From Deltaproteobacteria bacterium (lineage in GTDB: Archaea > Thermoplasmatota > Poseidoniia > Poseidoniales > Poseidoniaceae): a stretch of 64,000 nucleotides of DNA. The notes beneath the pieces were generated by a model. That model searched no databases. It was not told where the DNA came from and saw only the letters and a program-made list of their open reading frames with translations. The translations under genes were made by a program, and so were the position numbers. The DNA is taken from assembly GCA_028344335.1 (NCBI GenBank), contig JAOMAZ010000001.1:11468-75467 (forward strand). Direction: 5' to 3'. The stretch's first letter is position 1. Each line of letters opens with the position of its first letter. Below are positions 3,810 through 21,647 of the stretch, piece by piece.

Positions 3810-3813
3810 ATAA

Positions 3814-4593: not shown

Positions 4594-4648
4594 GAATAAG
4601 AGAACAACAGTCAAAGTATGGAACCACCTCGTCAAACATGGTGAGTGG

Positions 4649-6508
4649 ATGACGATCATAGAAAGATGGGATCCCAGCCGACCGGGACATCGATTATTGG
4701 ATGTTCTGAAGAAAGAAATACATAACCGCGGAATGCCAAGCGGAGAGCGAATCCGAGAGATTGCAGAACTTTGTGATACTACTGCTGCAAAGGTGAGGGG
4801 AGCGATTGGCTATTATGCCGAATTAAAACCAAGTGATCACACAGTTAGAGTTTGTACTGGAGAGTCGTGCCGAGCCAGAGGTGCTGATGCTTTAATCAAG
4901 GAATTAGAAGACTCGGGTGAACGAGTTGGAGAGTTGATTTGTGCTGGACTTTGTGCTTGTGGACCTGCGGTACTTCGAGACGAAACTGTACCTCAATTTG
5001 TATCTCAACAAGGAAGCGGCAGTCAATTCTATATCAGCCAAGATAGTACTAGTATTGCGATTGGCTGTGAAGAAATCGCCACCACCTTAATTCAACATAT
5101 TCCGAAAGATTCTGCGTTAATTCGAACAGGGAGTAGAGGTCTATTCCATATTGAGCCTACGCTAGAAGTGGATATAGAAGGTAAAAGACATGCTTTTGGT
5201 CCTATTACCTCGGCAGAGATTCCTTCAATCCTAGATTCAATTACTAATCAACAAATCCATCCGAAATCACTTGGCCTAGTTGAAGATTTACTCAAAAATC
5301 AATCAAGATATGCAATGCAAAGATTTGGTCATGCTAATCCTCTTGATTTGGAAGGAATGAAGGAACTAGGAGCCTACCAAGGATTGGAAAAAACCAAAGA
5401 AATTGGTAGCAAGGCAGTCATTGAAGAATTGAAGACTGCAGGCTTGAGAGGGCGTGGCGGAGCTGGATTCCCAACTCATTTCAAGTGGGCAGCAGCCGCT
5501 GCCGAACAAACGGATTTGAAATTCGTAGTGGCAAATGCCGATGAAGGAGATGCTGGTACATTCATCGACCGGATGATAATGGAAGGTGATCCTCATGCAT
5601 TAATCGAGGGGATGGCGATTTGCGCTCAAGTAATAGGGGCAAGTCAGGGGAAAGTCTACCTTAGGAGCGAATATCCTCATGCTGAAGTAACACTGGAAAG
5701 TGCCTTACAAGGTGCAAGAAATGAGGGAATCCTTGGAGACCATTTTGATATTGAGATAGCAATTGGAGCTGGCTCATATGTTTGTGGGGAAGAAACAGCG
5801 CTGCTTGAGAGCCTTGAAGGCAGGAGAGGAGAAGTTAGGGCACGCCCACCATTTCCAACAACTTCTGGTCTATTCGGTAAACCTACAATCGTCAATAACG
5901 TCCTGACATTCGCCTTAGCGGCGGCAATAATGAGAGTTGGAGGAGAGCATTACGGAAGCCTCGGAGTCGAATCAAGTAAGGGCACAGTAGTTGTTCAAGC
6001 AACTGGTACCTTAGAACGTCCTGCTTGTTTCGAGATTCCTTTTGGTGGAAGTATTGGTACTATACTCGATTCATGGTGTGGATGTGAGGAAGTAGTTGCA
6101 GTACAAGCAGGAGGGCCTCTTGGTTCGGTATTCAAAATGCAAGAAATGTATGATATAGAATTATCATTTGAGGGTTTGGCAAATGCAGGTGGCTTACTTG
6201 GCCATGGTGGTTTCGTTTGTTATGATGCTGATTTTGACGCTCATAAGGAAGTTGTTGGCTGGATGCGTTTCTTCCGCGACGAGAGTTGTGGAAAATGCAC
6301 CCCGTGTCGGATCGGCACTCAACGGGCTTTGGAATTGATTGAACGCTTGGGTGGAGACATGGAAAAAGAAGGCGATAAGAAATTACTGACCGACCTAGAT
6401 GATTTAATGACCTCAACCTCTCTCTGTGCACTTGGTGGATTAGCGATGAACCCAGTGCGCTCGACCATGGAACGTTGGCCAGCCGCCTTTGGGGGTGAAC
6501 AGAAATGA
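4649..6508 (+). CDS. fdsB: NAD(P)-linked formate dehydrogenase beta subunit: a NuoE-like [2Fe-2S] domain fused to a NuoF-like FMN/NADH/4Fe-4S domain (FdsB-type).
   Basis: The NuoE-like N-terminus (VCTGESCRARGAD...) is followed by the NuoF glycine-rich segments GLRGRGGAGFPT and ANADEGDAGTF, and Cys clusters CGKCTPCR. The start is uncertain: the track ORF begins at 4541 and the first plausible Met after the fdhD stop is at 4649. Confidence 0.8.
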   Translation: MTIIERWDPSRPGHRLLDVLKKEIHNRGMPSGERIREIAELCDTTAAKVRGAIGYYAELKPSDHTVRVCTGESCRARGADALIKELEDSGERVGELICAGLCACGPAVLRDETVPQFVSQQGSGSQFYISQDSTSIAIGCEEIATTLIQHIPKDSALIRTGSRGLFHIEPTLEVDIEGKRHAFGPITSAEIPSILDSITNQQIHPKSLGLVEDLLKNQSRYAMQRFGHANPLDLEGMKELGAYQGLEKTKEIGSKAVIEELKTAGLRGRGGAGFPTHFKWAAAAAEQTDLKFVVANADEGDAGTFIDRMIMEGDPHALIEGMAICAQVIGASQGKVYLRSEYPHAEVTLESALQGARNEGILGDHFDIEIAIGAGSYVCGEETALLESLEGRRGEVRARPPFPTTSGLFGKPTIVNNVLTFALAAAIMRVGGEHYGSLGVESSKGTVVVQATGTLERPACFEIPFGGSIGTILDSWCGCEEVVAVQAGGPLGSVFKMQEMYDIELSFEGLANAGGLLGHGGFVCYDADFDAHKEVVGWMRFFRDESCGKCTPCRIGTQRALELIERLGGDMEKEGDKKLLTDLDDLMTSTSLCALGGLAMNPVRSTMERWPAAFGGEQK

Positions 6509-9204
6509 GTAATGAATTCACCATGATAATTGACGGTACTATGGTTATTGGGCATGAAGGTCAAACAGTCATGCAAGTAGCCAGAGATAATGAAATTAAA
6601 ATTCCAAGTCTTTGTGATTCACCTCATCTTGCTGCATTCGGTTCTTGCCGAATATGTGTCGTAGAAGTGGATGGGATGCGCGGCACGCCTTCTTCTTGCA
6701 CTACCCCAGCAAATGCAGGAATGCAAGTTTCAACAACCAGTGATAGATTGTGGGAATTGCGAAGAGGGTTGACTGAACTCTATGTGAGTGAACACCCACT
6801 CGACTGCCTGACTTGTACTGCTAACGGAGATTGTGAGTTACAAGATGTTGCGGCAGAAGTTGGATTGAGGGAAATTCGCTATGACAATACTCCTTCTTGT
6901 GAAGGCATGCCAATCGATGAATCAAACCCCTTCTTTTCTTTTGACCCAAGTAAATGCATTGTCTGTTCTCGTTGCATCAGGGCCTGTGATGATATTCAAG
7001 CAACCCATGCTCTATCGCTAGATGGGAGAGGTTTCTTCAGCCGAATAATTGCTGGTGCAGATGAATTATTTATGGATTCAGATTGTGTATCATGTGGTGC
7101 TTGTGTCAACGAATGTCCAGTTGCTGCCCTTGAAGACACCGTCGAGAGAAAGCATGGCAAGCCAGATGCGTATGTTCGTACTACTTGCGCATTTTGCGGA
7201 GTCGGCTGTCAATTCGACGCTGGTGTCAAAGGTGGAAAACTAGTCTCGATGATTCCAGTTGCTGAGTCTCCTGTCAATCAGGGTCATTCTTGTGTCAAAG
7301 GGAGGTTCGCTTCAGCCTATGTCCATCACCAAGATAGGCTGACAGTTCCGCTGGTTCGTGATTCAATAGAAGATGAATTTAGAGAAGCAAGTTGGGAGGA
7401 GGTTTATGGCCTAATTTCGTCAAAATGGCAAAATCTGATTAGTACTCAGGGTCCTGATTCTCTCGGAATAATTACTTCTTCGCGTTCTACAAATGAACTC
7501 AACTATCTTGGCGCAAAATTGATGCGAGCTGTTGTTGGAACTAATAATGTGGATAATTGTGCAAGAGTATGCCATTCTGCAACTGTCAAAGGAATGATGA
7601 CGGTATTTGGTGCGGGGGCCGGAACTAATAGTTTGAATGATATCGATGAAACCGACTTACTCCTAGTCTCAGGCTGCAATCCCATTCACGGCCACCCAGT
7701 CACAGGCTCAAGAATAGTCCGCGCAAGAAAGCGTGGCATGAGGATGATTGTTGCCGATCCAAAACGCACAGAATTGGCTAAAATAGCCGATATTCACCTG
7801 CAATTAAGACCAGGTACAAATGTCGCCCTTTACCAAGGCTTGGCCCATATCATCCTACGGGAAAACTTGCAAGCCGGTGATGAATGGATGTCTTCTAGAA
7901 CCGAGAACCTTGAGCCATTCAAGGAAATGGTCAAATTGATGACGCCTGAATTATGTTCAGAACTGACTACCATCCCAGTCGAAACATTGGAATCCGCAGC
8001 AAGATTGTACGCCAAGGCCGATGCTGCAATGTCCGTACACGGCCTAGGTATGACTGAGCATAGTCATGGCTCTGAAGGTGTTATGGCACTCTCAAGTCTT
8101 GCACTGCTGACAGGAAATGTAGGCCGGCTAGGAACCGGAATCAATCCACTGAGGGGTCAAAATAATGTTCAGGGTTCATGTGACATGGGTGCTCTCCCTA
8201 ATGTCTATACAAATTATCAATCAGCAGACGACCCTCAAGTAAGACAGAAATTTGCTACTGCATGGAATGTAGAAGTTCCAACTAAACCGGGAATGACTTA
8301 TCCTGCTATGCTAGAAAGTGTTAGCGAAGGTGGGCTGAAATCACTATACATGATTGGCTCAGATATTGCCCACACAGACCCAAATAATCTACAGGTTATT
8401 GAGGCATTATCCAATTTGGAATTACTCATTGTTCAAGATATATTCTTCTGTGAATCTGCAAAGTTGGCCCATATCGTGCTGCCAGCTGCCTCATTCTTGG
8501 AATCCGATGGAACCTATACAAACGGTGAGAGAAGAATTCAGCGAATTCGAAAAGCTATCGATGCACCTGGTCAAGCAAAGCAGGATTGGATAATCGTCAA
8601 GGAATTAGCAGAAGCGATGGGCCACCCTATTGCATTTAGTGAGGATTGCTCTGATGTGTGGGATGAATTAGCGGCATTAACACCCAACTTCGTAGGAATC
8701 TCCTATGATAGGTTAGAGGATATAGAAGCCGTTCAATGGCCGGCGCCAACTACTGAACATCCTGGCACTTCTGTCATGCACCAAGACCAATTTTCGAGGG
8801 GGTTGGGCCATTTTGTTGCCCCTGAGTTTTCTGAGCCAAATGAAACTGCGAGCGATGATTACCCATTTATCCTAGTAACTGGTAGGAACCTCTATCACTA
8901 CAATGCAGCAACTCAAACAAGACGTAGTGGTCTTGTTGAATTCAGAGGTACTGATTACCTAGAAATACACCCAGAAGACGCTGAAAGACTTGGCATTGAA
9001 GACAATACTGAAATCTGGATTTCAAGCCCTCGGAATAAGATTAAAATGTTAGCAAAACACAATGATGATGTGAGAATAGGTAATCTATTCACAACTTTCC
9101 ACTTCCCAGAACTTGGAATCAACACCGTAATCAGTTCTTCATCCGATGGTTATACTCGTTGCCCCGAATACAAGGTCCAAGCTGTTGCCATAAGTGCCGT
9201 TTAA
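6505..9204 (+). CDS. fdsA: Formate dehydrogenase alpha subunit, a molybdopterin enzyme of the Cys type (FdsA/FdhF-like).
   Basis: An N-terminal 2Fe-2S and 4Fe-4S Cys-rich region (CRICVV, CIVCSRCIRAC, CVSCGACVNEC) is followed by CAFCGVGC. The active-site motif NNVDNCARVCHSATV carries Cys where selenoprotein FDHs have Sec (CARVUH). The ATGA overlap with fdsB couples translation. Confidence 0.9.
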   Translation: MSNEFTMIIDGTMVIGHEGQTVMQVARDNEIKIPSLCDSPHLAAFGSCRICVVEVDGMRGTPSSCTTPANAGMQVSTTSDRLWELRRGLTELYVSEHPLDCLTCTANGDCELQDVAAEVGLREIRYDNTPSCEGMPIDESNPFFSFDPSKCIVCSRCIRACDDIQATHALSLDGRGFFSRIIAGADELFMDSDCVSCGACVNECPVAALEDTVERKHGKPDAYVRTTCAFCGVGCQFDAGVKGGKLVSMIPVAESPVNQGHSCVKGRFASAYVHHQDRLTVPLVRDSIEDEFREASWEEVYGLISSKWQNLISTQGPDSLGIITSSRSTNELNYLGAKLMRAVVGTNNVDNCARVCHSATVKGMMTVFGAGAGTNSLNDIDETDLLLVSGCNPIHGHPVTGSRIVRARKRGMRMIVADPKRTELAKIADIHLQLRPGTNVALYQGLAHIILRENLQAGDEWMSSRTENLEPFKEMVKLMTPELCSELTTIPVETLESAARLYAKADAAMSVHGLGMTEHSHGSEGVMALSSLALLTGNVGRLGTGINPLRGQNNVQGSCDMGALPNVYTNYQSADDPQVRQKFATAWNVEVPTKPGMTYPAMLESVSEGGLKSLYMIGSDIAHTDPNNLQVIEALSNLELLIVQDIFFCESAKLAHIVLPAASFLESDGTYTNGERRIQRIRKAIDAPGQAKQDWIIVKELAEAMGHPIAFSEDCSDVWDELAALTPNFVGISYDRLEDIEAVQWPAPTTEHPGTSVMHQDQFSRGLGHFVAPEFSEPNETASDDYPFILVTGRNLYHYNAATQTRRSGLVEFRGTDYLEIHPEDAERLGIEDNTEIWISSPRNKIKMLAKHNDDVRIGNLFTTFHFPELGINTVISSSSDGYTRCPEYKVQAVAISAV

Positions 9205-9251
9205 ATCATTGGTGGCAATTGATAAGAGAAGGATGCCCAGCGTAAGCCACC

Positions 9252-11264
9252 ATGGTCAAGCAGGCGTTGATGCGATTAGCGGATGGAATCCCATCACAAT
9301 TGCCTGAATATCCTGCTATTGATGCTGTTATTGATCAAGCGCCAGCAAGAAAACAAATACTCTCAGCAAGAGATAAAGAATTGGCAATTCGGAATGCTTT
9401 GAGATATATCCCTGAAAAATGGCATGCAACTTTGGCTGCGGAATTCAAGCAAGAATTAGAGATATTTGGGCGCATCTTCATGATGCGTTTTAGGCCAACA
9501 GAATATGAGATGAAAGCATATCCAATCACAAATTATCCTGCAAAATGCAAACAAGCAGCGAGTATTATGCTGATGATTCAAAACAACCTTGACCCCGCAG
9601 TAGCACAATTCCCCCATCAATTAATCACTTATGGAGGCAATGGGGCGGTATTTCAAAACTGGATTCAATACCATTTGGTGATGCAATATCTAAGCCAGAT
9701 GACAGAGAATCAAAGCCTTGTCATGTATTCTGGCCACCCACTGGGACTCTTCCCTTCGCATCCCGATTCTCCACGGGTTGTCATCACCAATGGCATGGTC
9801 ATCCCAAATTATAGTTCTCAAGATAATTATGAGCGCCTAAATGCACTTGGGGTTTCCCAATATGGACAAATGACTGCGGGTTCATACATGTATATCGGAC
9901 CACAAGGAATCGTCCATGGGACAACTATCACACTGCTCAATGCAGCCCGCATGAAACTCGGCATAGCAAGTGATGCAAGCCTTGCAGGGATCTGCTACGT
10001 AACATCGGGACTAGGGGGGATGTCAGGTGCTCAAGCCAAGGCAGCGGTAATCGCTGGTTGTGTTGGTGTCATCTCAGAAGTTAACCCAATCGCAGCAAGA
10101 AAGCGCCATGAACAGGGTTGGTTAAGTGAACTCTACGAAGATGTCGACCAAGTCATCGATCGAATGTTAGAAGCAAAAGCTAACGGTGAGGCGATATCAA
10201 TCGGCCATGTTGGGAATATTGTTGACCTCTGGGAAAGACTTGTTGAGCGAGATATCCAAATCGAATTAGGCAGTGACCAAACAAGCCTACACAATCCATG
10301 GCAAGGTGGATACTTTCCCGTAGGAGTTGATTTTGAAGAAGCAAAACTGATGATGTCCCAAAACCCTTCGAGGTTCAAAAAAGAAATCCAATCCACCTTG
10401 CTAAGGCATGCAAAAGCAGTCAATACAATGGTGGAAAGAGGCACATATTTCTGGGATTATGGTAATGCCTTCTTACTTGAGGCAAGTCGAGCAGGCGCAG
10501 ATATTTGCGATGCAAACGGTGATTTTATTCATCCATCTTATGTTGAGGACATCATGGGTCCACGCTGTTTTGACCTTGGATTCGGACCCTTTCGATGGGT
10601 CTGTTGCTCGGGAAGCAAAGAAGACCTTGAGGTGACCGATAATATTGCCAAGCAGGTGCTCGAAGAAATGGCAACGACTGCTCCTTTAGAGATTCAACAG
10701 CAATTGAAGGATAATATCCAATGGATCGGCGCTGCGGGGATGAACAGGATGGTTGTTGGTAGTCAAGCAAGGATTCTCTATGCTGATGAGGAGGGCCGAA
10801 AGCGAATTGCCTCTGCATTTAATGAAGCAATAAAAGATGGAGTTATTAGTGCTGGAATCGTTTTAGGTAGAGATCATCACGATGTATCTGGGACAGATAG
10901 TCCATATCGTGAAACTGCCAATATCAAGGATGGTTCCAATCTTTGCGCTGATATGGCCATCCACAACGTCATCGGGGATTCATTTAGAGGTGCAACTTGG
11001 GTGAGTATCCACAATGGTGGAGGTGTTGGTTGGGGAGAAGTGATTAACGGTGGCTTTGGAATGTATCTCGATGGAAGTCAAGATTCTGAAAGGCGTTTGA
11101 ACTCAATGTTATCATGGGATGTCAACAACGGAATTGCTCGGCGTGCATGGGCAAGAAACCCAGAGGGAATATTTGCAATCAAGCGTGCCATGCAGAAGGA
11201 GCCTTTGCTCAAAGTTACCTTGCCAAATCTAGTAGATAACGAGATTATCGAAAATTTATTCTAA
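9252..11264 (+). CDS. hutU: Urocanate hydratase of the long, eukaryote-like UROC1 type.
   Basis: 670 aa. ALRNALRYIPEKW...AYPITNYPAKCKQAASIMLMIQNNLDPAVAQFPHQLITYGGNG...LVMYSGHPLGLFPS...VITNGMVIPNYSS aligns along its length with human UROC1. Confidence 0.9.
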   Translation: MVKQALMRLADGIPSQLPEYPAIDAVIDQAPARKQILSARDKELAIRNALRYIPEKWHATLAAEFKQELEIFGRIFMMRFRPTEYEMKAYPITNYPAKCKQAASIMLMIQNNLDPAVAQFPHQLITYGGNGAVFQNWIQYHLVMQYLSQMTENQSLVMYSGHPLGLFPSHPDSPRVVITNGMVIPNYSSQDNYERLNALGVSQYGQMTAGSYMYIGPQGIVHGTTITLLNAARMKLGIASDASLAGICYVTSGLGGMSGAQAKAAVIAGCVGVISEVNPIAARKRHEQGWLSELYEDVDQVIDRMLEAKANGEAISIGHVGNIVDLWERLVERDIQIELGSDQTSLHNPWQGGYFPVGVDFEEAKLMMSQNPSRFKKEIQSTLLRHAKAVNTMVERGTYFWDYGNAFLLEASRAGADICDANGDFIHPSYVEDIMGPRCFDLGFGPFRWVCCSGSKEDLEVTDNIAKQVLEEMATTAPLEIQQQLKDNIQWIGAAGMNRMVVGSQARILYADEEGRKRIASAFNEAIKDGVISAGIVLGRDHHDVSGTDSPYRETANIKDGSNLCADMAIHNVIGDSFRGATWVSIHNGGGVGWGEVINGGFGMYLDGSQDSERRLNSMLSWDVNNGIARRAWARNPEGIFAIKRAMQKEPLLKVTLPNLVDNEIIENLF

Positions 11265-11276
11265 GGAGGAAGATGT

Positions 11277-12809
11277 ATGGAAATAGAACTTGACGGAAGA
11301 AACCTAAGCATGGAAGAACTACTCCTTGTAGCAACCGGTGTTGCTGATGCAATTATTTCTGAAACAGCCAAAACAGGGATTGAAGCAGCAACAAAAACAG
11401 TTGAAGGCATCATTGAGAGAGGAGAAGTAGCCTATGGAATCAACACAGGGTTCGGGGCTCTTTGCAATACGAGTATCGACTCCTCTAAACTGGGGGACTT
11501 ACAAGCAAACCTGATTCGAAGCCATGCCTGTGGGATAGGAGAAGCCATGGAAGTAGTGCCGGTAAGGGCAATGATGTGTGCCCGTGCGAACTCATTATGC
11601 CGAGGTAATAGCGGTATTAGAATCGAAGTTATCCAAAGAATTCTCGACATGCTAAATCTTGGCCTAACACCTGTTGTTCCTAGAATTGGTTCCCTTGGAG
11701 CCTCTGGGGACCTTGCGCCTCTTTCCCATGTTGCTTTGACTATCATGGGAGAAGGCAGCGTAATTGACCAATACGGAGAATTCTATGATACTGCTCAGGC
11801 ATTGGCTAATAACGATTTGAAGCCAATTCAACTCCAAGCAAAGGAAGGACTTTCTCTAATTAATGGGACTAGTCAAATCCTTTCTTGGCTAACTATTTCT
11901 CACGCCATCCTAAGCGATCTTTTGCCGTTGGCAGACCTAATTCTCTCAACCTCAATCGAGGCATTAAGCGGCTCTATTGCACCAAGTGATGAACGCATAC
12001 ATACAGCAAGGCCTCACCCTGGTCAAGCGCTTGTTGCTAATCGAATTCTAAGAGCCCTAAACAATTCTGAAATCAATCAAGCCCATGCAGATTGTGATAA
12101 AGTTCAGGATCCATACTCCTTTCGATGCGCTCCACAAGTACATGGACCTGCAAATGAAGTCCTTCAAAGGCTAGGTGATGTGATAACAATAGAATTGAAT
12201 TCTGCAACAGATAACCCACTGATTTTTCCAGAACCAAATAACCCTGGTCCACACGAAGTCGTTAGTGGTGGAAACTTCCATGGAGAGATACTCGCCCTAA
12301 CCGCAGATGCAATGAATGCCGCTGTTCATGAAATTGCCAGCATTAGTGAGAGGAGAATGGACACCCTCTTGGATACAAAACGTAGTGGACTTCCTGCCTT
12401 CTTAGCCAATGAAAGCGGCCTTGAATCTGGAATGATGATTGTGCAATATGCAGCCGTAGCTGCAATCGCTGACCTTCGCGCCCACTTAGGACCTCATACC
12501 ACCTTTAGCCTCTCAACCTCAGCCAATCAAGAAGACCATGTTAGTATGGGTGCCACTGCTGCTTGGCATCTCTTCCAAAGCGCCCAAAGGCTAGCAGATA
12601 TCCTGTCCTGTGAAGCAATAATCGCTTGTGAAGGGTTGGAGCACCATCAAGAAAAGGCAGGAGATGGCGTGGATGCGCTCTACAAGCACGTTAGAACATT
12701 GGTAGAGCCATTACAGGGAGACCGCTCATTAGCAGGTGAAATGGCCGATTTAGCTAATGATTTCCTCAATGGAATTGGGGATGAAAATATTCACCCTTAC
12801 CTTGAGTGA
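11277..12809 (+). CDS. hutH: Histidine ammonia-lyase (MIO cofactor).
   Basis: GSLGASGDLAPLSHVAL contains the Ala-Ser-Gly MIO-forming triad. Protein is 510 aa. Confidence 0.9.
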   Translation: MEIELDGRNLSMEELLLVATGVADAIISETAKTGIEAATKTVEGIIERGEVAYGINTGFGALCNTSIDSSKLGDLQANLIRSHACGIGEAMEVVPVRAMMCARANSLCRGNSGIRIEVIQRILDMLNLGLTPVVPRIGSLGASGDLAPLSHVALTIMGEGSVIDQYGEFYDTAQALANNDLKPIQLQAKEGLSLINGTSQILSWLTISHAILSDLLPLADLILSTSIEALSGSIAPSDERIHTARPHPGQALVANRILRALNNSEINQAHADCDKVQDPYSFRCAPQVHGPANEVLQRLGDVITIELNSATDNPLIFPEPNNPGPHEVVSGGNFHGEILALTADAMNAAVHEIASISERRMDTLLDTKRSGLPAFLANESGLESGMMIVQYAAVAAIADLRAHLGPHTTFSLSTSANQEDHVSMGATAAWHLFQSAQRLADILSCEAIIACEGLEHHQEKAGDGVDALYKHVRTLVEPLQGDRSLAGEMADLANDFLNGIGDENIHPYLE

Positions 12810-13781
12810 TTAATCATCCAACAAGATATCAAGAGAATTCCAAACTTCGCGTATTCCGGTCAACTGTCTAATCCTGAAGCGGAATGCTGTGGCGTTTGAG
12901 ATATCTCCTCGAGACATCAATAAGTCCACGCGGCGGTCTAATTCAACCGCTAATCGCACCTTTTCTTCCACAACACGATATAGTGCATAGGCATGTTCCA
13001 TATCCTGATATTTTAGAGCAGGTTCCAACTCACTAACGTCGAAGCCCATTCGCCTCCAAGCCAATATCCGTCTGCGCAAAATTGCAGTAGTAAAACCAGC
13101 AGATGGTAGGCGAGTTAGGTGACTCAGTTTTGCCGAGCCGTCTTCATGTACCTCCACTTCTGAAGTTGTTTCAACTACCTCTTCCGATGCTTCAACTTCT
13201 TCTTCATGAATAATGACCTCGTCAATTGCAGCCTCAGGTAGTTCCCAAACAGGCGCCTCACGTCTTAAACGAGCGATTTCTGTTGTCATAAACGCCTTTG
13301 GTTCAACTGGACAAACAAGCCTCCATGTAGTTGCAGAAATATCATCTGACATTGAACGTAAAAAAGTCAAAACCGCTGCAAATCCATGCAGGCTCATCAA
13401 ATGTTCGACCCCGTCTAAAACGATTATACCAGACTTCTCAGATATCCTCTCTCTAATTTTCATCGCCAAACGCTCAAGACTTGGACTAACGGCACTCGGA
13501 GAATCTCGTTCAGTCAACCAACCTACTTCAACAGTATTGATATCAATCTTGCCAATCAAGCGACGAGGCGGTAATCTAGTTAGCAATAATGAATGATAAC
13601 CCGATGAATTCACCAAGTCTAGCCATTCAAACATGGCCTCCATTCCCTCTTCCAAAAGGTGGGTTGAGCCACCCTCTGGCAGAAGCCCCATACCGCTGCG
13701 ATGCTCCGCCATCATACCTCGCCCCTTGTTGACGGCTCTTGACCATGACGCCCATAAGAATAGAATGGTCAGTATTCCCAC
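12810..13781 (-). CDS. DUF835-like protein (degenerate RecA/KaiC-like fold without a P-loop) with an acidic linker and a C-terminal helical domain.
   Basis: SGIIVLDGVEHLMSLHGFAAVLTFLRSMSDDISATTWRLVCPVEPKAFMTTEIARLRREA resembles the DUF835 core. It is followed by the acidic stretch EEEVEASEEVVETTSEVEVHEDG. The start is uncertain because internal Mets are available. Confidence 0.5.
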   Translation of the reverse strand: MGILTILFLWASWSRAVNKGRGMMAEHRSGMGLLPEGGSTHLLEEGMEAMFEWLDLVNSSGYHSLLLTRLPPRRLIGKIDINTVEVGWLTERDSPSAVSPSLERLAMKIRERISEKSGIIVLDGVEHLMSLHGFAAVLTFLRSMSDDISATTWRLVCPVEPKAFMTTEIARLRREAPVWELPEAAIDEVIIHEEEVEASEEVVETTSEVEVHEDGSAKLSHLTRLPSAGFTTAILRRRILAWRRMGFDVSELEPALKYQDMEHAYALYRVVEEKVRLAVELDRRVDLLMSRGDISNATAFRFRIRQLTGIREVWNSLDILLDD

Positions 13782-13845
13782 TGCTGGTGCACTTTCATCC
13801 GCATATCATTATAACGTGCATTGAAGTGCCGAGAATGGGTTCTCT

Positions 13846-15675
13846 ATGTCTGGAAATGATGATGCGAACGATGGAATGGCAGAATGCGGCGCATGTAGGG
13901 CCGTAGTACCGGTTGACTCAGAGGAATGTCCAGGTTGCGGAATATCCTTTACTGGAGTCAGTGAAACAAGTCTTGGAGAATGTGGGGCTTGTGGCGCATT
14001 AGTCGCTTTGGAAAGCAAAGCATGCCCTCAATGCGGCGTTGTTTTCGTAGCAGATGATGTCATTTCCATCCTTGGAGACTGGCTTTCAGCCACCGGATTA
14101 ACAGTGGCAGACCTATTCAAGCGATTCGATGAAAACGAAGATGGCGTTATCGAAGCACACGAATTCAAGAGCGGCCTGTTGGCACTCAATATTGCTGATC
14201 TCCCAGAATCTCAAGTTGACCGCCTAGTCAAAGCACTCGATGATGACGGAAATGGCGTTATCGACCTAGAAGAACTTGAATCTACATTCTCATCACCTGA
14301 CAATGCTCCCGCTAAGGATGTTGGACCAGAAGAAGAAGAAACTACTGAGGAAGACTCAAACGAAGAGGAGGAAGACTCAAACGAAGAGAGTGAAGAGTCG
14401 GTTGAGGAAGAAGATTCCGCAGAAGAGGACGAAGAGGAAAGTTCCGATGACAAAGCTGAAGAAACTGCCGAGGAAGACTCAAGTGAAGAAGAAGAGGAAA
14501 GTTCTGATGGCGAAGAGGAAACTACAGAGGAAGACTCAAGCGAAGGGGATGAAGATGATTCAACTGAGGATGAAGATGATTCAACTGAGGATGAAGAAGA
14601 AATCCCCGACACACCTTTAGCACGTATGGTTAAGAATTTCAAAGATGCAGGATATAGCGTCAAAGAAGCCTTCGAGCATATGGATGTAAACAATGATGGT
14701 GAAATCGACGGCGAAGAGATGACAAAAGCCCTAGCAGAATTCGGCGGTGGTACCATCGATGAAGAGGATGTTAGTGCAGTAATGGAAGAATTAGACCTAG
14801 ATGAGAATGGAGTTATTACCCTTGACGAGCTAATGGTAGCATTTGGAGTTCCAGCCGAAGAAGAGCCTGAGGAGGATGAAAAGCCTAAGGAAGAATCCAA
14901 GCCAGAGAAGGAGTTTCCCACCGACCTTCAAAAGAAATTGATGTCAAAGAAAGCCAACGATATCTTTTGGCCAATAATGCACACTTTATTCGCTGTATTC
15001 GCATTACTCTGGGTACTAAATGGAATGGGTACATTCGTAGATGGCGAAGGTGGCAGCATAGAATTTGAAGGAAAAACCGTTGCTTGCGACACTGATTTTC
15101 ATGGAAAGTGTAAAAATTCACTAACACCATTTTCAGGAGATGGTTTGACATCTTCAATGCCTGCCGCATTCTATGCTGATGGAATCATCTTCATGATTCT
15201 TGGTTTCTCGGGTCTAGGTGCAAGTCTCTATGCACACTTGATTTTGATGAAAGCCTGGAGAGCCAAAGTAAAAGGCGACGAGGGTGACGATGAAGTAGCT
15301 AAAGAAGAGGATTCAGATTCAAAAGAAGATTCAGATTCAAAGGAAGATGAAGATTCTGATGATGAGTCCGATGACGATGATGAGTCCGATGACGATGATG
15401 AGTCTGATGACGATGATGAGTCCGATGACGACGATGAATCCGATGACGACGATGACGACGATGAATCCGATGACGACGATGAATCCGATGACGATGATGA
15501 GTCCGATGACGATGATGACATCGATGTAGGTTCGAGAGTCGGAGTTGAAGTTGACGGTGAAGAGATCTTTGGAACCATCATTTCATTCGATGATGATGAA
15601 GATACAGTCACCATAGAAGACGAGGAAACTGGCGATGAAATCGAGGCTCCTCAAGACACCATGTTCTTGGAGTGA
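13846..15675 (+). CDS. Membrane-anchored poly-acidic Ca2+-binding-like protein: double Zn-ribbon, 4 EF-hand loops, 2 TM helices and a poly-Asp/Glu/Ser tail.
   Basis: Two Cys4 ribbons: CGACRAVVPVDSEECPGCG and CGACGALVALESKACPQCG. Four EF loops: DENEDGVIEAHEF, DDDGNGVIDLEEL, DVNNDGEIDGEEM, DLDENGVITLDEL. TM segments: IFWPIMHTLFAVFALLWVLNGMG and IIFMILGFSGLGASLYAHLILM. Acidic runs at about 14330-14620 and 15270-15530, including (ESDDD)n. Confidence 0.75.
   Translation: MSGNDDANDGMAECGACRAVVPVDSEECPGCGISFTGVSETSLGECGACGALVALESKACPQCGVVFVADDVISILGDWLSATGLTVADLFKRFDENEDGVIEAHEFKSGLLALNIADLPESQVDRLVKALDDDGNGVIDLEELESTFSSPDNAPAKDVGPEEEETTEEDSNEEEEDSNEESEESVEEEDSAEEDEEESSDDKAEETAEEDSSEEEEESSDGEEETTEEDSSEGDEDDSTEDEDDSTEDEEEIPDTPLARMVKNFKDAGYSVKEAFEHMDVNNDGEIDGEEMTKALAEFGGGTIDEEDVSAVMEELDLDENGVITLDELMVAFGVPAEEEPEEDEKPKEESKPEKEFPTDLQKKLMSKKANDIFWPIMHTLFAVFALLWVLNGMGTFVDGEGGSIEFEGKTVACDTDFHGKCKNSLTPFSGDGLTSSMPAAFYADGIIFMILGFSGLGASLYAHLILMKAWRAKVKGDEGDDEVAKEEDSDSKEDSDSKEDEDSDDESDDDDESDDDDESDDDDESDDDDESDDDDDDDESDDDDESDDDDESDDDDDIDVGSRVGVEVDGEEIFGTIISFDDDEDTVTIEDEETGDEIEAPQDTMFLE
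15355..15520 (+). repeat. In-frame 15-bp tandem repeat (gat gac gat gat gag tcc, about 11 copies) encoding (DDDES)n. It is preceded by two 18-bp repeats encoding DSDSKE.
   Basis: Direct reading shows gatgagtccgatgacgatgat iterated with minor third-position variants. Alternate-frame track ORFs 15347..15529 (MSPMT repeats) and 15228..15614 (Ser-rich) are artefacts of this periodicity. Confidence 0.85.
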
Positions 15676-15679
15676 GGTC

Positions 15680-16045
15680 ATGGACCTGCTATCCGTCTTC
15701 GACGGACTAAGTGCCTGTCCATTATGTGGAACTTTACAAAAATCAGGAATGTCTCGATGCCCTGAATGTGGTACTTTCAATACATCAACTCAATTTGAAG
15801 AGCGACCTATTCCACACGTAGAAGATCGGATTAAAACGACTCCAGCAGACCCTACTCAATACAGCCTAAACCCAAATATTGAAATCCCAATTGATGACAA
15901 TGTAGAGGTTGAAGATATGACAACCTCATGGGGTGGCGGAAATACAAATTTTGGCCTCGGCGATGATGAAATCGATACAACGAGGGATGTTGACCTGAAA
16001 TCTCTGAATATCCCCTCTGCTGAAACTCTATTTGAAGAAGAATAA
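15680..16045 (+). CDS. Small Zn-ribbon protein with an acidic C-terminal region.
   Basis: MDLLSVFDGLSACPLCGTLQKSGMSRCPECGTF gives a CxxC...CxxC ribbon. The C-terminus is Asp/Glu-rich and ends ETLFEEE. The start is 5 nt after the preceding stop, and the ORF is trimmed from track ORF 15635. Confidence 0.55.
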   Translation: MDLLSVFDGLSACPLCGTLQKSGMSRCPECGTFNTSTQFEERPIPHVEDRIKTTPADPTQYSLNPNIEIPIDDNVEVEDMTTSWGGGNTNFGLGDDEIDTTRDVDLKSLNIPSAETLFEEE

Positions 16046-16152
16046 AAAACTATTAGTGAGATGGCATTTTAATAAACTATTATTAGTAATTCAATGATGC
16101 TGGAATATCGGAGTATTCATATCTAAAAGTCCAATCGAGGAGATTGATTCGC

Positions 16153-16305
16153 ATGGCTGAGTATCAAGGATTCTGTCTGAAATGCAAGACATATGGACCA
16201 ATTAATAATCACGAGCACTTCACTATGAGCAATGGCAGAAAGCGCGTAGCTGGCTCATGTAGTGGAAAGGGATGCACTGGTAGAATCTCTAAAATTATCG
16301 CTTAA
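16153..16305 (+). CDS. 50-aa Cys4 zinc-ribbon mini-protein. It falls below the 60-aa cutoff of the ORF track.
   Basis: Reads MAEYQGFCLKCKTYGPINNHEHFTMSNGRKRVAGSCSGKGCTGRISKIIA, with GGAG 8 nt upstream of the ATG. The intact CxxC...CxxxxC spacing suggests a real gene. Confidence 0.4.
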   Translation: MAEYQGFCLKCKTYGPINNHEHFTMSNGRKRVAGSCSGKGCTGRISKIIA

Positions 16306-16371: not shown

Positions 16372-16447
16372 GGGCTCGTGGTCTAGGGGTCATGACGTTG
16401 CCTTGACATGGCAAAGATCGCCAGTTCAATTCTGGCCGAGCCCACCA
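16372..16447 (+). tRNA. tRNA-Val (anticodon GAC), with CCA encoded.
   Basis: Manual fold gives acceptor GGGCTCG/CGAGCCC, D arm GTCT..TGAC, anticodon stem TTGCC/GGCAA with loop TTGACAT (anticodon GAC), T arm GCCAG-TTCAATT-CTGGC, discriminator A, then CCA. Confidence 0.85.
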
Positions 16448-16688: not shown

Positions 16689-16988
16689 TCAGAAATCTTC
16701 GCTATCAACAACAAAAATCCCGACCAAAGGAGGTCCATTCAGCACAACTTCCAGTCCGCCATCCTTTTCATCTAATTCTGAAACAGACCTCATCGCCACT
16801 CCTATCGCCTGCTCCTTCTCGTAAAGAGCTTGTAACAAAAATGTCCCTGCAGTATTAGCCGACTCGCCAACCCATGATCGAAGACAACCTGGTGATTCTT
16901 TTCGAAGTAAAGAGCGGACTTTCAACATTCTACGTAACCGAGCAGCATATCCATCCTTGCTAACCAATACTACAGTTTCCAACCACAT
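16689..16988 (-). CDS. Hypothetical 99-aa protein downstream of hutI.
   Basis: Clean ORF, co-oriented with and 81 nt downstream of hutI, followed by a hairpin and T-tract. No family recognised from sequence. Confidence 0.4.
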   Translation of the reverse strand: MWLETVVLVSKDGYAARLRRMLKVRSLLRKESPGCLRSWVGESANTAGTFLLQALYEKEQAIGVAMRSVSELDEKDGGLEVVLNGPPLVGIFVVDSEDF

Positions 16989-17069: not shown

Positions 17070-18275
17070 TCAATGAAGTAAGAACTCGCCCCCAACAAGA
17101 GTTCCGACAAATGGTGAATGCCCGGGCCGAGAACACCAAGCCTCCCAATTTGGAGAATCTAGGATGTTCAAATTTGCAGCGCCACCAACGACGATTTGGC
17201 CGTGCGTCAAATCTGCATCATGCATGACATTCTCAGCCGGGTTTCGAGAAACTGCTACTAGTGAAGCAAGAGGGTCAATTCCCATCCTCTGAGAAAGTAA
17301 AGAACCAATAAATGGTAAAGACAGTGTCCGGCAATTGGGATTGTAATCGCTAGCAGCACACCAAGCCCACTCTTCATCAATGCATTGTTGCGCAGGAGGG
17401 AAATGTGTCTCCCCCATTGAATAAGGGGTCGCTGGCAAGAAACATTGCATGCTGTTAGCATCATTAGCAGCAGCCCGTGCTTCATCAGAACTCCAATGAG
17501 CATGATCGCCAGATTGGGAGCCCAATTCAGCCGCTAATGCAAGCCCCCCGCCATCCACAAACTCATCTACATGAAGTCGGATGTCCATACCTCCAGCCTT
17601 GGCTGCTTTGCAAAGCTCCTCAGTCTCTTCAATACTAAACCAACCAGGCTCACAAAACACATCAGCAGAACGCGCCATCCCAGAATCAAGCACTGCGGGT
17701 AATTGTTCAGAAAGAAGCTCTTCGAAATAGTCACTACGGCTCATGTTTGGAGGAGCGGCATGGGCACCTAACCAAGTAGAATCAATAGAAAGGCCATGTA
17801 AAGAAACTGCGGCCTCCAATAAACGCAATTCTGAGTCCGTATTCAAGCCATAACCACTCTTTACCTCCAAAGCAGTCGTGCCATGACGTAAGGCCATCTC
17901 CATACGTGAAAGGCCACATTCCAACAAAGACTCCATGCTCATCTCCCTTGTTGCAGCAACAGTACTTGCAATACCGCCGCCTCTAGCAGCAATATCTGCA
18001 TATGACATCCCATTCAGGCGCCAGCGTAATTCACGAGAGCGATCCCCCCCCCATAGTAAGTGAGTATGTGCATCGACCAAGCCTGGTATTACTGCCCTAC
18101 CTCCTACTTCCAAGACCTGATGACCATTGATATCAACAAAATTAAGTTCATTTCCTCGAAGTCCTCCGAGGTATTCATCGCGTAGGTTTTCAGAATCTCC
18201 GATTCTGGTGATTATACCATTATCAACAACGATACCCATTCCACTTGAAGATACTAATAACTCATCATTAGACAT
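17070..18275 (-). CDS. hutI: Imidazolonepropionase (amidohydrolase superfamily).
   Basis: PGLVDAHTHLLWGG metal-binding motif with HAHWSSDE. The start is placed at the Met of MSNDELLVSSSGMGIVVDNG (about 402 aa). The longer track ORF would overlap kae1 head-on. Confidence 0.85.
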   Translation of the reverse strand: MSNDELLVSSSGMGIVVDNGIITRIGDSENLRDEYLGGLRGNELNFVDINGHQVLEVGGRAVIPGLVDAHTHLLWGGDRSRELRWRLNGMSYADIAARGGGIASTVAATREMSMESLLECGLSRMEMALRHGTTALEVKSGYGLNTDSELRLLEAAVSLHGLSIDSTWLGAHAAPPNMSRSDYFEELLSEQLPAVLDSGMARSADVFCEPGWFSIEETEELCKAAKAGGMDIRLHVDEFVDGGGLALAAELGSQSGDHAHWSSDEARAAANDANSMQCFLPATPYSMGETHFPPAQQCIDEEWAWCAASDYNPNCRTLSLPFIGSLLSQRMGIDPLASLVAVSRNPAENVMHDADLTHGQIVVGGAANLNILDSPNWEAWCSRPGHSPFVGTLVGGEFLLH

Positions 18276-18411
18276 GGATGACCCACGAAGTGGACCCTCT
18301 CCACCAGAAAGATGTGCCAATGGACCAAGGTCCAATAACAGACTCGCCATGCACTACGCTACGAGGGTACGGTTCAAATGGACTGCCCTTGAGCAAGGTA
18401 CGGGTAATGAC

Positions 18412-20504: not shown

Positions 20505-21647
20505 ATGGCAGAAGCACCATTTCTTTACGTTGCACTAACTCTAGTTATAGCCCTAATCGCTGGACTGATACCTGTTTTCTCAAAGATAAAAGACAATCAA
20601 GAGCGGTTGAAAATTATGACCGCCATAGCATCTGGAATTATTATTGCCTCTGCAATGCTGGTTGTAATTCCAGAAGGATACGAAATTGCAACCCAAGAAG
20701 ATGCACATACTGAGGATGATGCCTTAGCAGGTTCAATCGCTTTAGTATTGCTCGAAGTTAATCACGGAGATATTACTAATGCGCAAGCAATCGAGGAGAT
20801 TGAAGGTCTCCTCGGAGGTCATGATGATCACGACGGCCATGAAGAAGAATCTGATCACGACAGCCATGAAGAAGAATCGAATCATGAAGCCAGTGATGAA
20901 ACACTTTCCGATTCTGTAAAGCACATCATCGAAGAATATGAGGAAGGTGCGATTAATGCAACTGCTGCCTTAAATGAGATTGAAACTGCAATATCCGGCC
21001 ACAATCATGCTGGCGAAGAAAGTCATGCTGAGCATATTAATGGACTACTGTTGGGTGGAGCGATTCTCGCAGGGTTCATGATGATGTTCATCCTTGAAGG
21101 TTCGGGAATTGGCCATGCTGTTCACGAGGAGCACCACAACCACGGCGATGAGCATGGGCACGAGCATGTCCACCACAGCAACTCCGGCTGGATGTTAGTT
21201 CTCGGTTTGACCCTGCACTCCGCAACCGATGGTTTGGCAATAGGTGCAGCTGCAGCATCTGGTAGTATCGCATTGACCGCGACCGTTGCCCTTGCAGTAT
21301 TGATTCACAAAGCACCAGCTGCATTTAGCCTAGGTGTCTTCTCGATGCACGAGAGAGAAGAGAGAAATGATACAATCAAAGATGTTGTCATTTTTTCACT
21401 CGCTACACCTGTCATGATGCTATTAGCATACTACGCTCTTGCAGACCTAGAGTCTCACCTCATCGGTTTGGCTATGCTATTCTCCGCTGGAACTTTTCTC
21501 TACATTGCAACCGTAGACACATTGCCTGATATCCACAACCCAGAAACAGGAAAGAAAGCGGTGATGTACGTTCTAGTAGGAGTTGCAATCCTGACACTTC
21601 TACTGATTTTAGCAAATACTGTAGGCTTACTTGAGCATGCTCATTGA
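20505..21647 (+). CDS. ZIP-family divalent metal transporter (ZupT/GufA-like) with His/Asp/Glu-rich loops.
   Basis: Multiple TM helices. Two His-rich loops: HDDHDGHEEESDHDSHEEESNHEA and HAVHEEHHNHGDEHGHEHVHH. ZIP TM4/TM5 signatures: LHSATDGLAIGAA and LIHKAPAAFSLGV. Confidence 0.75.
   Translation: MAEAPFLYVALTLVIALIAGLIPVFSKIKDNQERLKIMTAIASGIIIASAMLVVIPEGYEIATQEDAHTEDDALAGSIALVLLEVNHGDITNAQAIEEIEGLLGGHDDHDGHEEESDHDSHEEESNHEASDETLSDSVKHIIEEYEEGAINATAALNEIETAISGHNHAGEESHAEHINGLLLGGAILAGFMMMFILEGSGIGHAVHEEHHNHGDEHGHEHVHHSNSGWMLVLGLTLHSATDGLAIGAAAASGSIALTATVALAVLIHKAPAAFSLGVFSMHEREERNDTIKDVVIFSLATPVMMLLAYYALADLESHLIGLAMLFSAGTFLYIATVDTLPDIHNPETGKKAVMYVLVGVAILTLLLILANTVGLLEHAH

Follow-up and report, generated by a model that had tools for sequence, protein, structure and literature searches.

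Genes and features at the locus

The window analyzed here, the whole stretch of 64,000 nt of DNA, contains an open reading frame (ORF) at nucleotides 13846..15675 of the forward strand that encodes a protein of 609 amino acids between an ATG start codon and a TGA stop codon. From its N-terminus, the protein comprises a double zinc ribbon, an EF-hand pair, an acidic linker, a second EF-hand pair, a transmembrane (TM) hairpin with an ectoloop, an acidic tail, and an SH3-like barrel; its database name is only 'EF-hand domain-containing protein'. A TATA-like element, ATTATAA, is located 38 nt before the ATG (13808..13814, +), and the conservation of ATTATA in at least 80% of 31 aligned homologous loci makes it a putative promoter element. 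Five nucleotides downstream of the EF-hand gene begins a putatively co-transcribed gene for a small soluble protein (15680..16045, +; 121 amino acids from the Met at 15680), which has one CxxC-x10-CxxC ribbon, DPxxYSxxPN and WxGGxxDF motifs, and an acidic C-terminus. Divergently encoded on the other side (12810..13781, -; probable true start at nt 13712-13715) is a protein with a DUF835 (inactivated KaiC-like) domain and a conserved C-terminal helical domain.

Marine Group II (MGII) archaea, which are uncultured, rank with the most abundant archaea of the plankton. The EF-hand gene belongs to a family that is present in single copy throughout the order Poseidoniales (146 species genomes, MGIIa and MGIIb both), while its hairpin module is nearly absent beyond that order, with 52 matches among 1.84 billion representatives. 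The nearest genome is DUDM01000050.1, from Candidatus Poseidoniales archaeon UWMA-0357, which is 90% identical over the hairpin. Within the family, the ribbons, the EF-hand ligands, the hairpin, the ectoloop, and the barrel are near-invariant, and conservation is lowest in the acidic tracts. As judged from this pattern of conservation, selection falls on the EF-hand ligands, the ribbons, the hairpin with its ectoloop, and the C-terminal barrel, and not on the sequence or length of the acidic tracts.

The first-pass annotation of this DNA proposed that disruption of the ORF in related genomes would point to a low-complexity artefact. We considered such an artefact as a spurious or decaying ORF arising from purine-rich repeats. 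The ORF does contain DNA tandem repeats, and a long Ser-rich antisense ORF (14211-14921, -) shows that repeats can generate ORFs. However, of the 120 homologues retrieved, 117 have an intact ORF in which each repeat is flanked by near-invariant folded modules, the hairpin and the C-terminal domain are carried by one ORF in 73 of 79 genomic loci, and a conserved, putative promoter element stands ahead of the gene. We consider the artefact reading effectively refuted.

The same annotation ranked this protein as its strongest candidate for something undescribed. This holds for function, since our literature search found no published description of what the protein does. It does not hold for the family itself, which is large, order-wide, and already present in the NCBI and JGI databases under generic names; moreover, calcium-binding domains in MGIIa/MGIIb-specific families have been remarked upon (Meheust et al. 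2022). A search of NCBIfam returned only sub-threshold, generic matches (the XopAW EF-hand effector at 30 bits against a cutoff of 120, and the PRK14559 ribbon), and therefore no equivalog. One marine metatranscriptome paper that mentions EF-hands was set aside, as its subject is algae and not MGII.

Zinc ribbons and EF-hand pairs

The double zinc ribbon (aa 12-67; 13879..14046, +) consists of two CxxC-x10-CxxC knuckles whose eight Cys residues, at aa 14/17/28/31 and 46/49/60/63, are all invariant in the family. Thus, the two N-terminal ribbons described earlier are present, with a spacing of x10 rather than the x17 that had been given. A profile search against DZR (PF12773) scored 25.5 bits for the target protein against a gathering score of 27.3, while homologues scored 27.3 and 31.6 bits, at or above that threshold. 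The predicted zinc ribbon is therefore recognized at the level of the family and falls marginally below threshold in the target sequence.

Two EF-hand pairs follow, each identified by Pfam, by PROSITE PS00018, by conservation, and by sequence matches in the PDB. Pair 1 (aa 84-148; 14095..14289, +) contains the loops DENEDGVIEAHE (nt 14128-14163) and DDDGNGVIDLEE (nt 14239-14274), and pair 2 (aa 269-333; 14650..14844, +) contains DVNNDGEIDGEE (nt 14683-14718) and DLDENGVITLDE (nt 14794-14829). The four loops, located at aa 95, 132, 280, and 317, each fit PS00018 and have Asp at position 1, Gly at position 6, Ile at position 8, and Glu at position 12, exactly as first described. In 20,000 composition-preserving shuffles of the protein, the mean number of PS00018 matches was 0.047 and the maximum was 2, compared with the 4 observed. 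The profile check proposed with the annotation gave a clear answer: EF-hand_7 matches in two stretches that correspond to the two pairs (E = 2.8e-20, 72.9 bits, cutoff 30), and EF-hand_1 matches in four (4.4e-20, 70.1 bits, cutoff 25.4). A lack of EF-hand profile significance, which had been named as grounds for rejection, is thus the opposite of what we found, and the profiles and canonical loops place both pairs in EF-hand clan CL0220. The EF-hand ligand positions are invariant across 25 homologues of 40-85% identity, and every family member keeps four to seven canonical loops with Glu at position 12, a long subfamily having six or seven. From these features, we infer that the loops bind Ca2+.

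The nearest relatives of both EF-hand pairs in the PDB are calmodulin, CML, centrin, troponin C, SCaMC, and CDPK, with E values of 1e-7 to 1e-13. These are sensor-type proteins, but calmodulin is so prevalent in the PDB that they tilt the choice between sensor and buffer only weakly toward a sensor. Like calmodulin, CML, centrin, and troponin C, the MGII protein carries its canonical 12-residue loops in two pairs, with helices on either side of them. It differs from them in being an archaeal, membrane-anchored protein whose pairs are split by a polyanionic linker of 112 amino acids and are fused to the double zinc ribbon, to the hairpin of two TM helices with its ectoloop, and to the SH3-like barrel. 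Bacterial EF-hand proteins, EfhP of Pseudomonas aeruginosa, CabD, CasA, and calerythrin among them, are likewise prokaryotic, have canonical EF-hand loops, and have been proposed as Ca2+ relays, yet we found no sequence relationship to these four beyond the EF-hand itself. EfhP has two EF-hands, is predicted to be periplasmic, and its Kd has been measured at 13.7 uM (PMC9132961), whereas members of the MGII family have four to seven EF-hands and additional modules in a two-pass membrane protein that is predicted to hold its EF-hands in the cytoplasm.

Membrane hairpin, C-terminal barrel, and acidic tracts

Hydrophobic helices at about aa 368-397 and 440-470 bear out the earlier proposal that the protein is anchored in the membrane by a two-TM hairpin. 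The first helix is preceded by a Lys-rich juxtamembrane segment (together aa 357-397; 14914..15036, +) and carries the near-invariant residues F357, P358, Q362, K368, D372, W375, P376, H379, W389, and N392. The second helix and its basic exit (aa 440-472; 15163..15261, +) carry the conserved residues F442, Y443, D445, G446, G456, L465, W471, and R472. The segment between the helices (aa 398-439; 15037..15162, +) is a predicted external mini-domain with a VxGxGG motif, a beta-hairpin, the motif C414...C422-x-N-S-L-T-P, and an S-M-P motif, and no other part of the membrane module is conserved as strongly. It had gone unmentioned in the first-pass annotation. In an AF2 model of moderate confidence (pLDDT 71.5), the helices pair as a hairpin and the loop contains a beta-hairpin.

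Among 114 family members, the hairpin flanks are rich in Lys and Arg (medians 4 and 5), and the loop is acidic (K+R 1, D+E 9) with exactly two Cys residues in every member, which are probably joined in a disulfide bond. The N-terminus is acidic and lacks a signal peptide. This charge distribution suggests a topology in which the ribbons, EF-hands, acidic tracts, and barrel are cytoplasmic, and only the loop lies outside. STIM1-type sensors follow a shared logic, in that their EF-hands are membrane-tethered through TM helices. Unlike STIM1, however, the MGII protein has two TM helices rather than one, has predicted cytoplasmic EF-hands, and lacks a SAM domain and a coiled-coil/CAD region. Some homologues match EF-hand_STIM1 below threshold (27.8-30 bits, cutoff 32.2), but SAM is absent from them and EF-hand_STIM1 does not appear among the target's Pfam matches at E<=1; these matches reflect no more than the general resemblance among EF-hands.

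The ectoloop module is autonomous, since it is duplicated in an EF-less, double-hairpin paralogue whose neighbors are a VWA-domain protein and proteins without an assigned identity. Its conservation, autonomy, and duplication in a paralogue encoded beside a VWA-domain protein, together with the housekeeping-like occurrence of the family in single copy across the order, would suit an organizer of the cell envelope. In such an organizer, the ectoloop would fasten the protein to the S-layer or some other surface component, a sub-membrane assembly would be arranged by the polyanionic arms and interaction domains on the cytoplasmic side, and the EF-hands would be constitutively Ca2+-loaded and structural. 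We regard this as quite unlikely, given that canonical EF-hand loops with Glu at position 12, which are typical of regulatory Ca2+ sites, are kept in every member, that the neighboring gene encodes a signaling-type DUF835 protein, and that nothing points to a surface partner.

The last 51 amino acids (aa 559-609; 15520..15672, +), also left out of the first-pass annotation, form a near-invariant folded domain that ends in MFLE. This domain has the five strands of a bent beta-barrel, and we are confident in assigning it as an SH3-like (Tudor/KOW/Sm-like) barrel, which is typically an interaction module. It bears a weak Sm1-motif similarity to LSm5, which forms rings (E = 0.058). This similarity would fit the idea that the hairpins oligomerize, perhaps through the barrel, into an EF-gated pore that acts as a Ca2+-regulated ion channel or transport regulator, following the logic of two-TM channels with cytoplasmic Ca2+-sensing domains. 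Such a pore would be consistent with two TM helices that have a structured loop between them, with the invariant polar or special residues in or beside those helices (D372, H379, N392, D445, G446, and G456), and with a modest helical periodicity of conservation (P about 0.03-0.05). Profile and fold searches gave no sequence or fold similarity to known ion-channel families (two-TM P-loop channels, MscL, CorA, and MCU), and none of the channel signature motifs GMN, TVGYG, and WDxxEP is visible in the target sequence. We hold a channel to be quite unlikely. More generally, the TM hairpin model had no significant structural neighbor in a Foldseek search (best E 0.9), and a PDB profile search with the TM module gave nothing significant (best E 0.67). 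The RyR, IP3R, and CNG pore regions that appeared in the fold search are noise (E>=0.9), and a Pfam PFF1_TM match at aa 449-552 was treated as compositional because it is sub-threshold (17.8 bits, cutoff 32.3) and spans TM helix 2 and the acidic tail.

The two acidic tracts are built from DNA tandem repeats. Linker 1 (aa 151-262; 14296..14631, +) is rich in Glu, Asp, and Ser, has a net charge of -60, contains 21-nt and 57-nt repeats, and varies in length and sequence among homologues. The Asp-rich tail (aa 478-558; 15277..15519, +), of the form (ESDDDD)n, contains an 18-nt repeat present 9.4 times at nt 15358-15518 and ranges from 46 to 136 amino acids in homologues; Asp makes up 53% of aa 491-575. 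The contiguous tracts total approximately 193 amino acids, with 198 residues in windows of at least 60% D/E and 219 at at least 50%. The figure of more than 250 poly-Asp/Glu/Ser residues given earlier therefore stands only as the D+E+S total of the whole protein, which is 270.

Given this composition, we considered the proposal that the protein is a calsequestrin- or parvalbumin-like buffer, in which approximately 200 poly-Asp/Glu residues and the EF-hands serve as a membrane-tethered, high-capacity, low-affinity sink for Ca2+ that leaks in from seawater. Seawater contains about 10 mM Ca2+, and the Asp-rich tails of calsequestrin and calreticulin bind Ca2+ with low affinity. The MGII protein is 35.5% D+E, and it is the only one of the 50 ORFs in the window with such tracts. 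Every homologue keeps an acidic tail and an overall D+E content of 26-36%, and both tracts stay strongly acidic throughout the family, so polyanionic character is selected and charge may do more than provide a spacer. However, tract length and sequence drift freely, the tracts consist of slippage-prone repeats, and in the subfamily with six or seven EF-hands linker 1 is less acidic and structured. The invariance of the zinc ribbons, the conservation of the ectoloop, the SH3-like barrel, and the dedicated partner in the operon would all be superfluous in a pure buffer, whose low-affinity carboxylate sites would presumably face competition from cytoplasmic K+ and Mg2+.

The resemblance to calsequestrin and to the calreticulin C-domain lies in the long Asp/Glu-rich tracts, the Asp-rich tail being similar in composition to calsequestrin's acidic C-terminal tail. 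Calsequestrin is defined by three thioredoxin-fold domains (PMC7016017), whereas the MGII protein has no match to Calsequestrin (PF01216) or Thioredoxin in Pfam even at E<=1, its tracts are not conserved in sequence, and the lack of a signal peptide and the positive-inside statistics (n=114) predict that its acidic tracts and EF-hands lie in the cytoplasm rather than a storage lumen. The two proteins are not homologous. Because there is no thioredoxin fold, the predicted location is cytoplasmic, and conservation is at its weakest in the acidic tracts, the calsequestrin-like store of the first-pass annotation is not supported, and a buffer in any form seems unlikely. Where that annotation had offered a Ca2+ buffer or sensor, the sensor fits better, and we suggest that the calsequestrin analogy stay out of annotation.

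Linked genes and a proposed role

The small zinc-ribbon gene lies 2-7 nt downstream of the EF-hand gene or overlaps its stop codon in nearly all loci, and it stays adjacent even in a divergent member with a different wider context. The DUF835 gene is found divergently upstream wherever that flank exists. However, synteny extends across the order for all eight genes of the neighborhood, the hut genes among them, and general conservation of the genome, rather than function, may therefore explain why DUF835 is adjacent. The EF-less paralogue adjoins the VWA-domain and unassigned proteins rather than DUF835, and thus lends no support to a link between hairpin and DUF835.

Taken together, we favor, with a probability of roughly one in two, a reading of the protein as a two-pass, membrane-tethered, cytoplasmic Ca2+-responsive sensor or scaffold that is specific to the Poseidoniales/MGII. 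In this sensor or scaffold, the N-terminal part with its double zinc ribbon and two calmodulin-like EF-hand pairs, and the C-terminal part with its acidic tail and SH3/Tudor-like barrel, would face the cytoplasm, leaving only a small conserved loop of approximately 45-60 amino acids exposed outside. Binding of Ca2+ to the four canonical loops would change the conformation or availability of the zinc ribbons and the barrel, which would in turn engage soluble partners. The likeliest partners would be the small co-transcribed zinc-ribbon protein and the divergently encoded DUF835 protein. The ectoloop could supply an outside cue or an anchor point, and the main task of the polyanionic tracts would be that of flexible spacers repelled by the membrane, perhaps with some weak binding of cations. 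Domain content, conservation, distribution, and gene linkage are shown here, and from them we infer the topology, the binding of Ca2+, the identity of the partners, and the direction of signaling.

To our knowledge, Ca2+ signaling in archaea is essentially uncharacterized. A conserved membrane protein with four to seven EF-hands would offer a handle on whether MGII archaea signal with intracellular Ca2+, all the more as a dedicated operon partner and a signaling-type neighbor accompany it and its soluble parts are expressible. The two orphan modules defined here, the TM hairpin with its Cys-Cys ectoloop and the SH3-like barrel, could become family models. A more ambitious reading, which we consider improbable, is that the three genes form a self-contained, MGII-specific archaeal Ca2+ pathway. 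Here the two-TM protein would be an outside-in receptor (or a Ca2+-gated conduit) whose ectoloop senses an external cue while its cytoplasmic EF-hands read intracellular Ca2+, and the signal would pass via the zinc-ribbon and SH3-like modules to the small zinc-ribbon protein and a DUF835 hub. One possible output would be control of the surrounding histidine-utilization genes. If this were true, archaea would have in this trio their first defined Ca2+ second-messenger module, one built on an orphan membrane fold.

PDB searches with the two linked proteins gave no matches for the DUF835 protein and only generic ribbons (E>=0.1) for the small one, and our literature search found no description of a DUF835 gene paired with an EF-hand membrane protein. 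In archaeal response regulators, for example REC-DUF835, DUF835 serves as an output domain (Galperin et al. 2018, PMC5847659), and it is thus common to these signaling proteins and to the divergent neighbor. In contrast to the REC-DUF835 regulators, the neighbor has a DUF835 that is not fused to REC; it has its own conserved C-terminal domain, and its gene adjoins that of an EF-hand membrane protein.

EF-hands, zinc ribbons and acidic tracts

The first-pass annotation placed an ORF at 13846-15675, and one is present there on the forward strand (13846..15675), with an ATG start and a TGA stop, encoding a protein of 609 aa. The four EF-hand loops it quoted are all located in the protein (aa 95, 132, 280 and 317); each fits PROSITE PS00018, and parsing the sequence finds Asp1, Gly6, Ile8 and Glu12 in every one. 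Because the protein is very acidic, we tested for a chance origin of these loops by shuffling. The whole protein, shuffled 20,000 times, gave a mean of 0.047 PS00018 matches and a maximum of 2, compared to the 4 present. Pfam recovers EF-hand_7 as two pairs (2.8e-20) and EF-hand_1 in four stretches (4.4e-20), and no other ORF of the ~50 in the window contains an EF loop. Profile and motif both identify the protein as a genuine member of the EF-hand family. The eight cysteines assigned to two N-terminal ribbons do lie in two knuckles, with a spacing of CxxC-x10-CxxC rather than the x17 originally given; the DZR profile scores 25.5 bits, slightly below its 27.3 cutoff.

A homologue search using the protein with its low-complexity tracts removed returned 1,234 matches, the best 120 of which are all proteins of 500-750 aa with DZR and EF-hand domains. 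Databases name the homologues 'EF-hand domain-containing protein [Candidatus Poseidoniaceae archaeon]', 'hypothetical protein' or by a generic COG label. An alignment of 25 sequences (40-85% identity) shows complete or almost complete conservation of the eight ribbon cysteines, the Ca-ligand positions in each of the four loops, a juxtamembrane motif (FP...K...D..WP..H), W389, N392, W471, R472, the inter-helix loop (V-x-G-x-G-G ... C414 ... C422-x-N-S-L-T-P ... S-M-P..F-Y-x-D-G) and a 51-aa C-terminal domain ending MFLE. Among 117 complete homologues, every member bar one has four CxxC motifs, and each protein has 4, 6 or 7 PROSITE-grade EF loops. We consider it extremely improbable that the ORF is an artefact.

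The protein contains two acidic tracts, a linker (aa 151-262, net charge -60) and a tail (aa 478-558); they are unmatched in any other of the roughly 50 ORFs in the window. The earlier count of more than 250 residues of poly-Asp/Glu/Ser holds only for total Asp, Glu and Ser (270); the tracts themselves hold 198 (windows of at least 60% D/E). At the DNA level they are tandem repeats (18 nt x 9.4, also 21-nt and 57-nt units). Both tracts are unalignable and variable in length in the 25-sequence alignment, and the 117 complete homologues have tails of 46-136 aa (median 60% D/E) and a D+E share of 26-36% over the whole protein. What the homologues preserve is thus the charge of the tracts, and not their length or sequence. 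In two species-representative genomes (loci L038 and L052), the membrane hairpin and the C-terminal SH3-like barrel are split between two ORFs, probably by a frameshift in the acidic repeat or by misassembly there. A Ser-rich antisense ORF (14211-14921, minus strand, 236 aa) mirrors the GAA/GAT-rich linker and is a repeat by-product, not a gene. Of the window's other ORFs, only that of a ZIP-family metal transporter (20505-21647, plus strand) includes a short stretch of acidic sequence (30 residues, windows of at least 50% D/E).

The membrane hairpin and its predicted topology

Two hydrophobic helices, at about aa 368-397 and 440-470, bear out the proposed hairpin, one of two modules that the first-pass annotation left unanalysed. 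An AF2 model (pLDDT 71.5) consists of a short amphipathic helix, TM1, a loop beta-hairpin and a long TM2, and the module has no significant PDB neighbour by sequence or fold. Conservation is focused on the membrane interfaces and the loop. The invariance of D372, H379, N392 and D445 would suit a Ca2+-regulated channel, but the protein lacks channel similarity of any kind, and we regard this alternative as quite improbable.

No signal peptide is found in the protein, and its N-terminus is acidic. Across 114 members, the median K/R count is 4 in the 18 residues preceding TM1 (versus 1 D/E) and 5 in the 15 residues that follow TM2; the loop has 1 K/R versus 9 D/E and, in every member, exactly two cysteines. 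The positive-inside rule predicts a cytoplasmic location for the ribbons, EF-hands, acidic tracts and barrel and an external one for the loop, in which a disulfide is then plausible. The calsequestrin-like store suggested earlier is disfavoured mainly because this predicted placement leaves no compartment for a store. The protein also misses calsequestrin's defining features, having neither thioredoxin domains (PMC7016017) in a Pfam search nor a predicted luminal location.

A profile of the hairpin module matched only 52 proteins at E<=1e-3 among 1.84 billion cluster representatives. Ten atypical matches were scanned with Pfam. In eight of them, EF-hands precede the hairpin. P0145 and P0151, the remaining pair, give no Pfam match; they lack EF-hands and carry TM-ectoloop-TM in two tandem copies with basic flanks. 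Therefore, the ectoloop is an autonomous conserved module. That the EF-hand protein serves as an envelope organiser strikes us as a slim prospect. Genes of the EF-less paralogous family (L085:1671-3590 and L088:254-2086) lie upstream of those for a 211-aa protein, a VWA-domain protein and an uncharacterised protein of ~526-551 aa.

Gene neighbourhood

The gene order is HutU-HutH (+), DUF835 (-), the EF-hand gene (+), a small Zn-ribbon protein (+), a 99-aa ORF (-), HutI-like (-) and Kae1. Of about 79 loci with flanking sequence, essentially all retain this order. Because this synteny is so wide, functional linkage is not provable from the neighbourhood alone. The window holds a near-complete histidine-utilisation block (2103-12809 and 17070-18350). 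FTCD (FTCD_N/FTCD, 2103-3176; FTCD_C, 3177-3809), FdhD (3814-4593) and a NuoF-like and molybdopterin formate-dehydrogenase-like pair (4541-9204) lie upstream, followed by urocanase (9252-11264), histidine ammonia-lyase (11277-12809) and, on the strand opposite to the rest, a HutI-like amidohydrolase (17070-18350). In every Poseidoniales locus examined, the EF-hand, small Zn-ribbon and DUF835 genes are embedded in this block. At least 80% of 31 loci conserve an ATTATA element located 38 nt upstream of the EF-hand gene's ATG.

Homologues of the small Zn-ribbon protein begin at its Met16 (ATG at nt 15680), 5 nt past the EF-hand gene's stop; the ORF as mechanically listed (15635-16045) is 15 codons too long at its start. 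The gene is directly downstream in three divergent members, including locus L090, where the next gene differs, and its CxxC-x10-CxxC ribbon has spacing identical to that of the EF-hand protein's ribbons. This adjacency and shared spacing are more specific than the broad synteny.

DUF835 has been classed among the output domains used by archaeal response regulators, as an inactivated KaiC-like version (PMC5847659). The DUF835 protein here has a conserved C-terminal domain of its own (~110 aa, LPxxGF..IL..RILxWRRMGxDVSxxEPAL ... FRIRQLTG), which has no Pfam or PDB match. Homologues of its gene (12810-13781, minus strand) align from Met24 (nt 13712), and the listed GTG start is probably over-extended.

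The 99-aa ORF (16689-16988, minus strand), which lies between a tRNA and the HutI-like gene at a position maintained throughout the order, has a weak ABM-monooxygenase match (E=0.07) and no other. A 53-aa Cys-rich ORF (16144-16305, plus strand), with a sub-threshold DUF5679 zinc-ribbon match (21.2 bits versus a cutoff of 27), precedes this tRNA-Val(GAC) (16372-16447, plus strand) and recurs in only some homologous loci.

Proposed role and distribution

By sequence, both EF pairs come nearest to calmodulin, CML, centrin, troponin C, SCaMC and CDPK. We assign a probability of about one half to the protein being a membrane-tethered cytoplasmic Ca2+ sensor or scaffold. In such a sensor, the EF pairs would switch upon Ca2+ binding and so alter what the ribbons and barrel bind, the prime candidate partners being the operon-encoded small Zn-ribbon protein and the DUF835 protein. 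The ectoloop may contribute external input or an anchor. For the acidic tracts, we envisage a role as flexible polyanionic spacers, perhaps with weak cation binding; that the protein is simply a cytoplasmic buffer seems unlikely.

The defining features of STIM are missing from this protein. EfhP, the best-studied bacterial EF-hand signalling protein among those compared, has two EF-hands, a predicted periplasmic location and a Kd of 13.7 uM (PMC9132961); its logic is alike, whereas its architecture and location differ. The only published allusion that we found is a remark that four MGIIa/MGIIb-specific families carry 'calcium-binding domains', with architecture and function not given (PMC9258230). 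The gene is a real, ordinary-looking one of a known kind, an EF-hand protein, and its architecture is undescribed, lineage-restricted and includes two orphan modules.

With one genome scanned per species, 146 genomes encode the hairpin, all of them Poseidoniales-type marine MAGs, including the original MG-II chromosome (CM001443.1); cluster names span Poseidoniaceae and Thalassarchaeaceae. One 4.9-kb contig (CAXQWT010000101.1, locus L078), assigned to a MAG labelled Salipiger bermudensis, has the EF-hand gene with DUF835 and HutH genes upstream, and is probably a mis-binned Poseidoniales contig.
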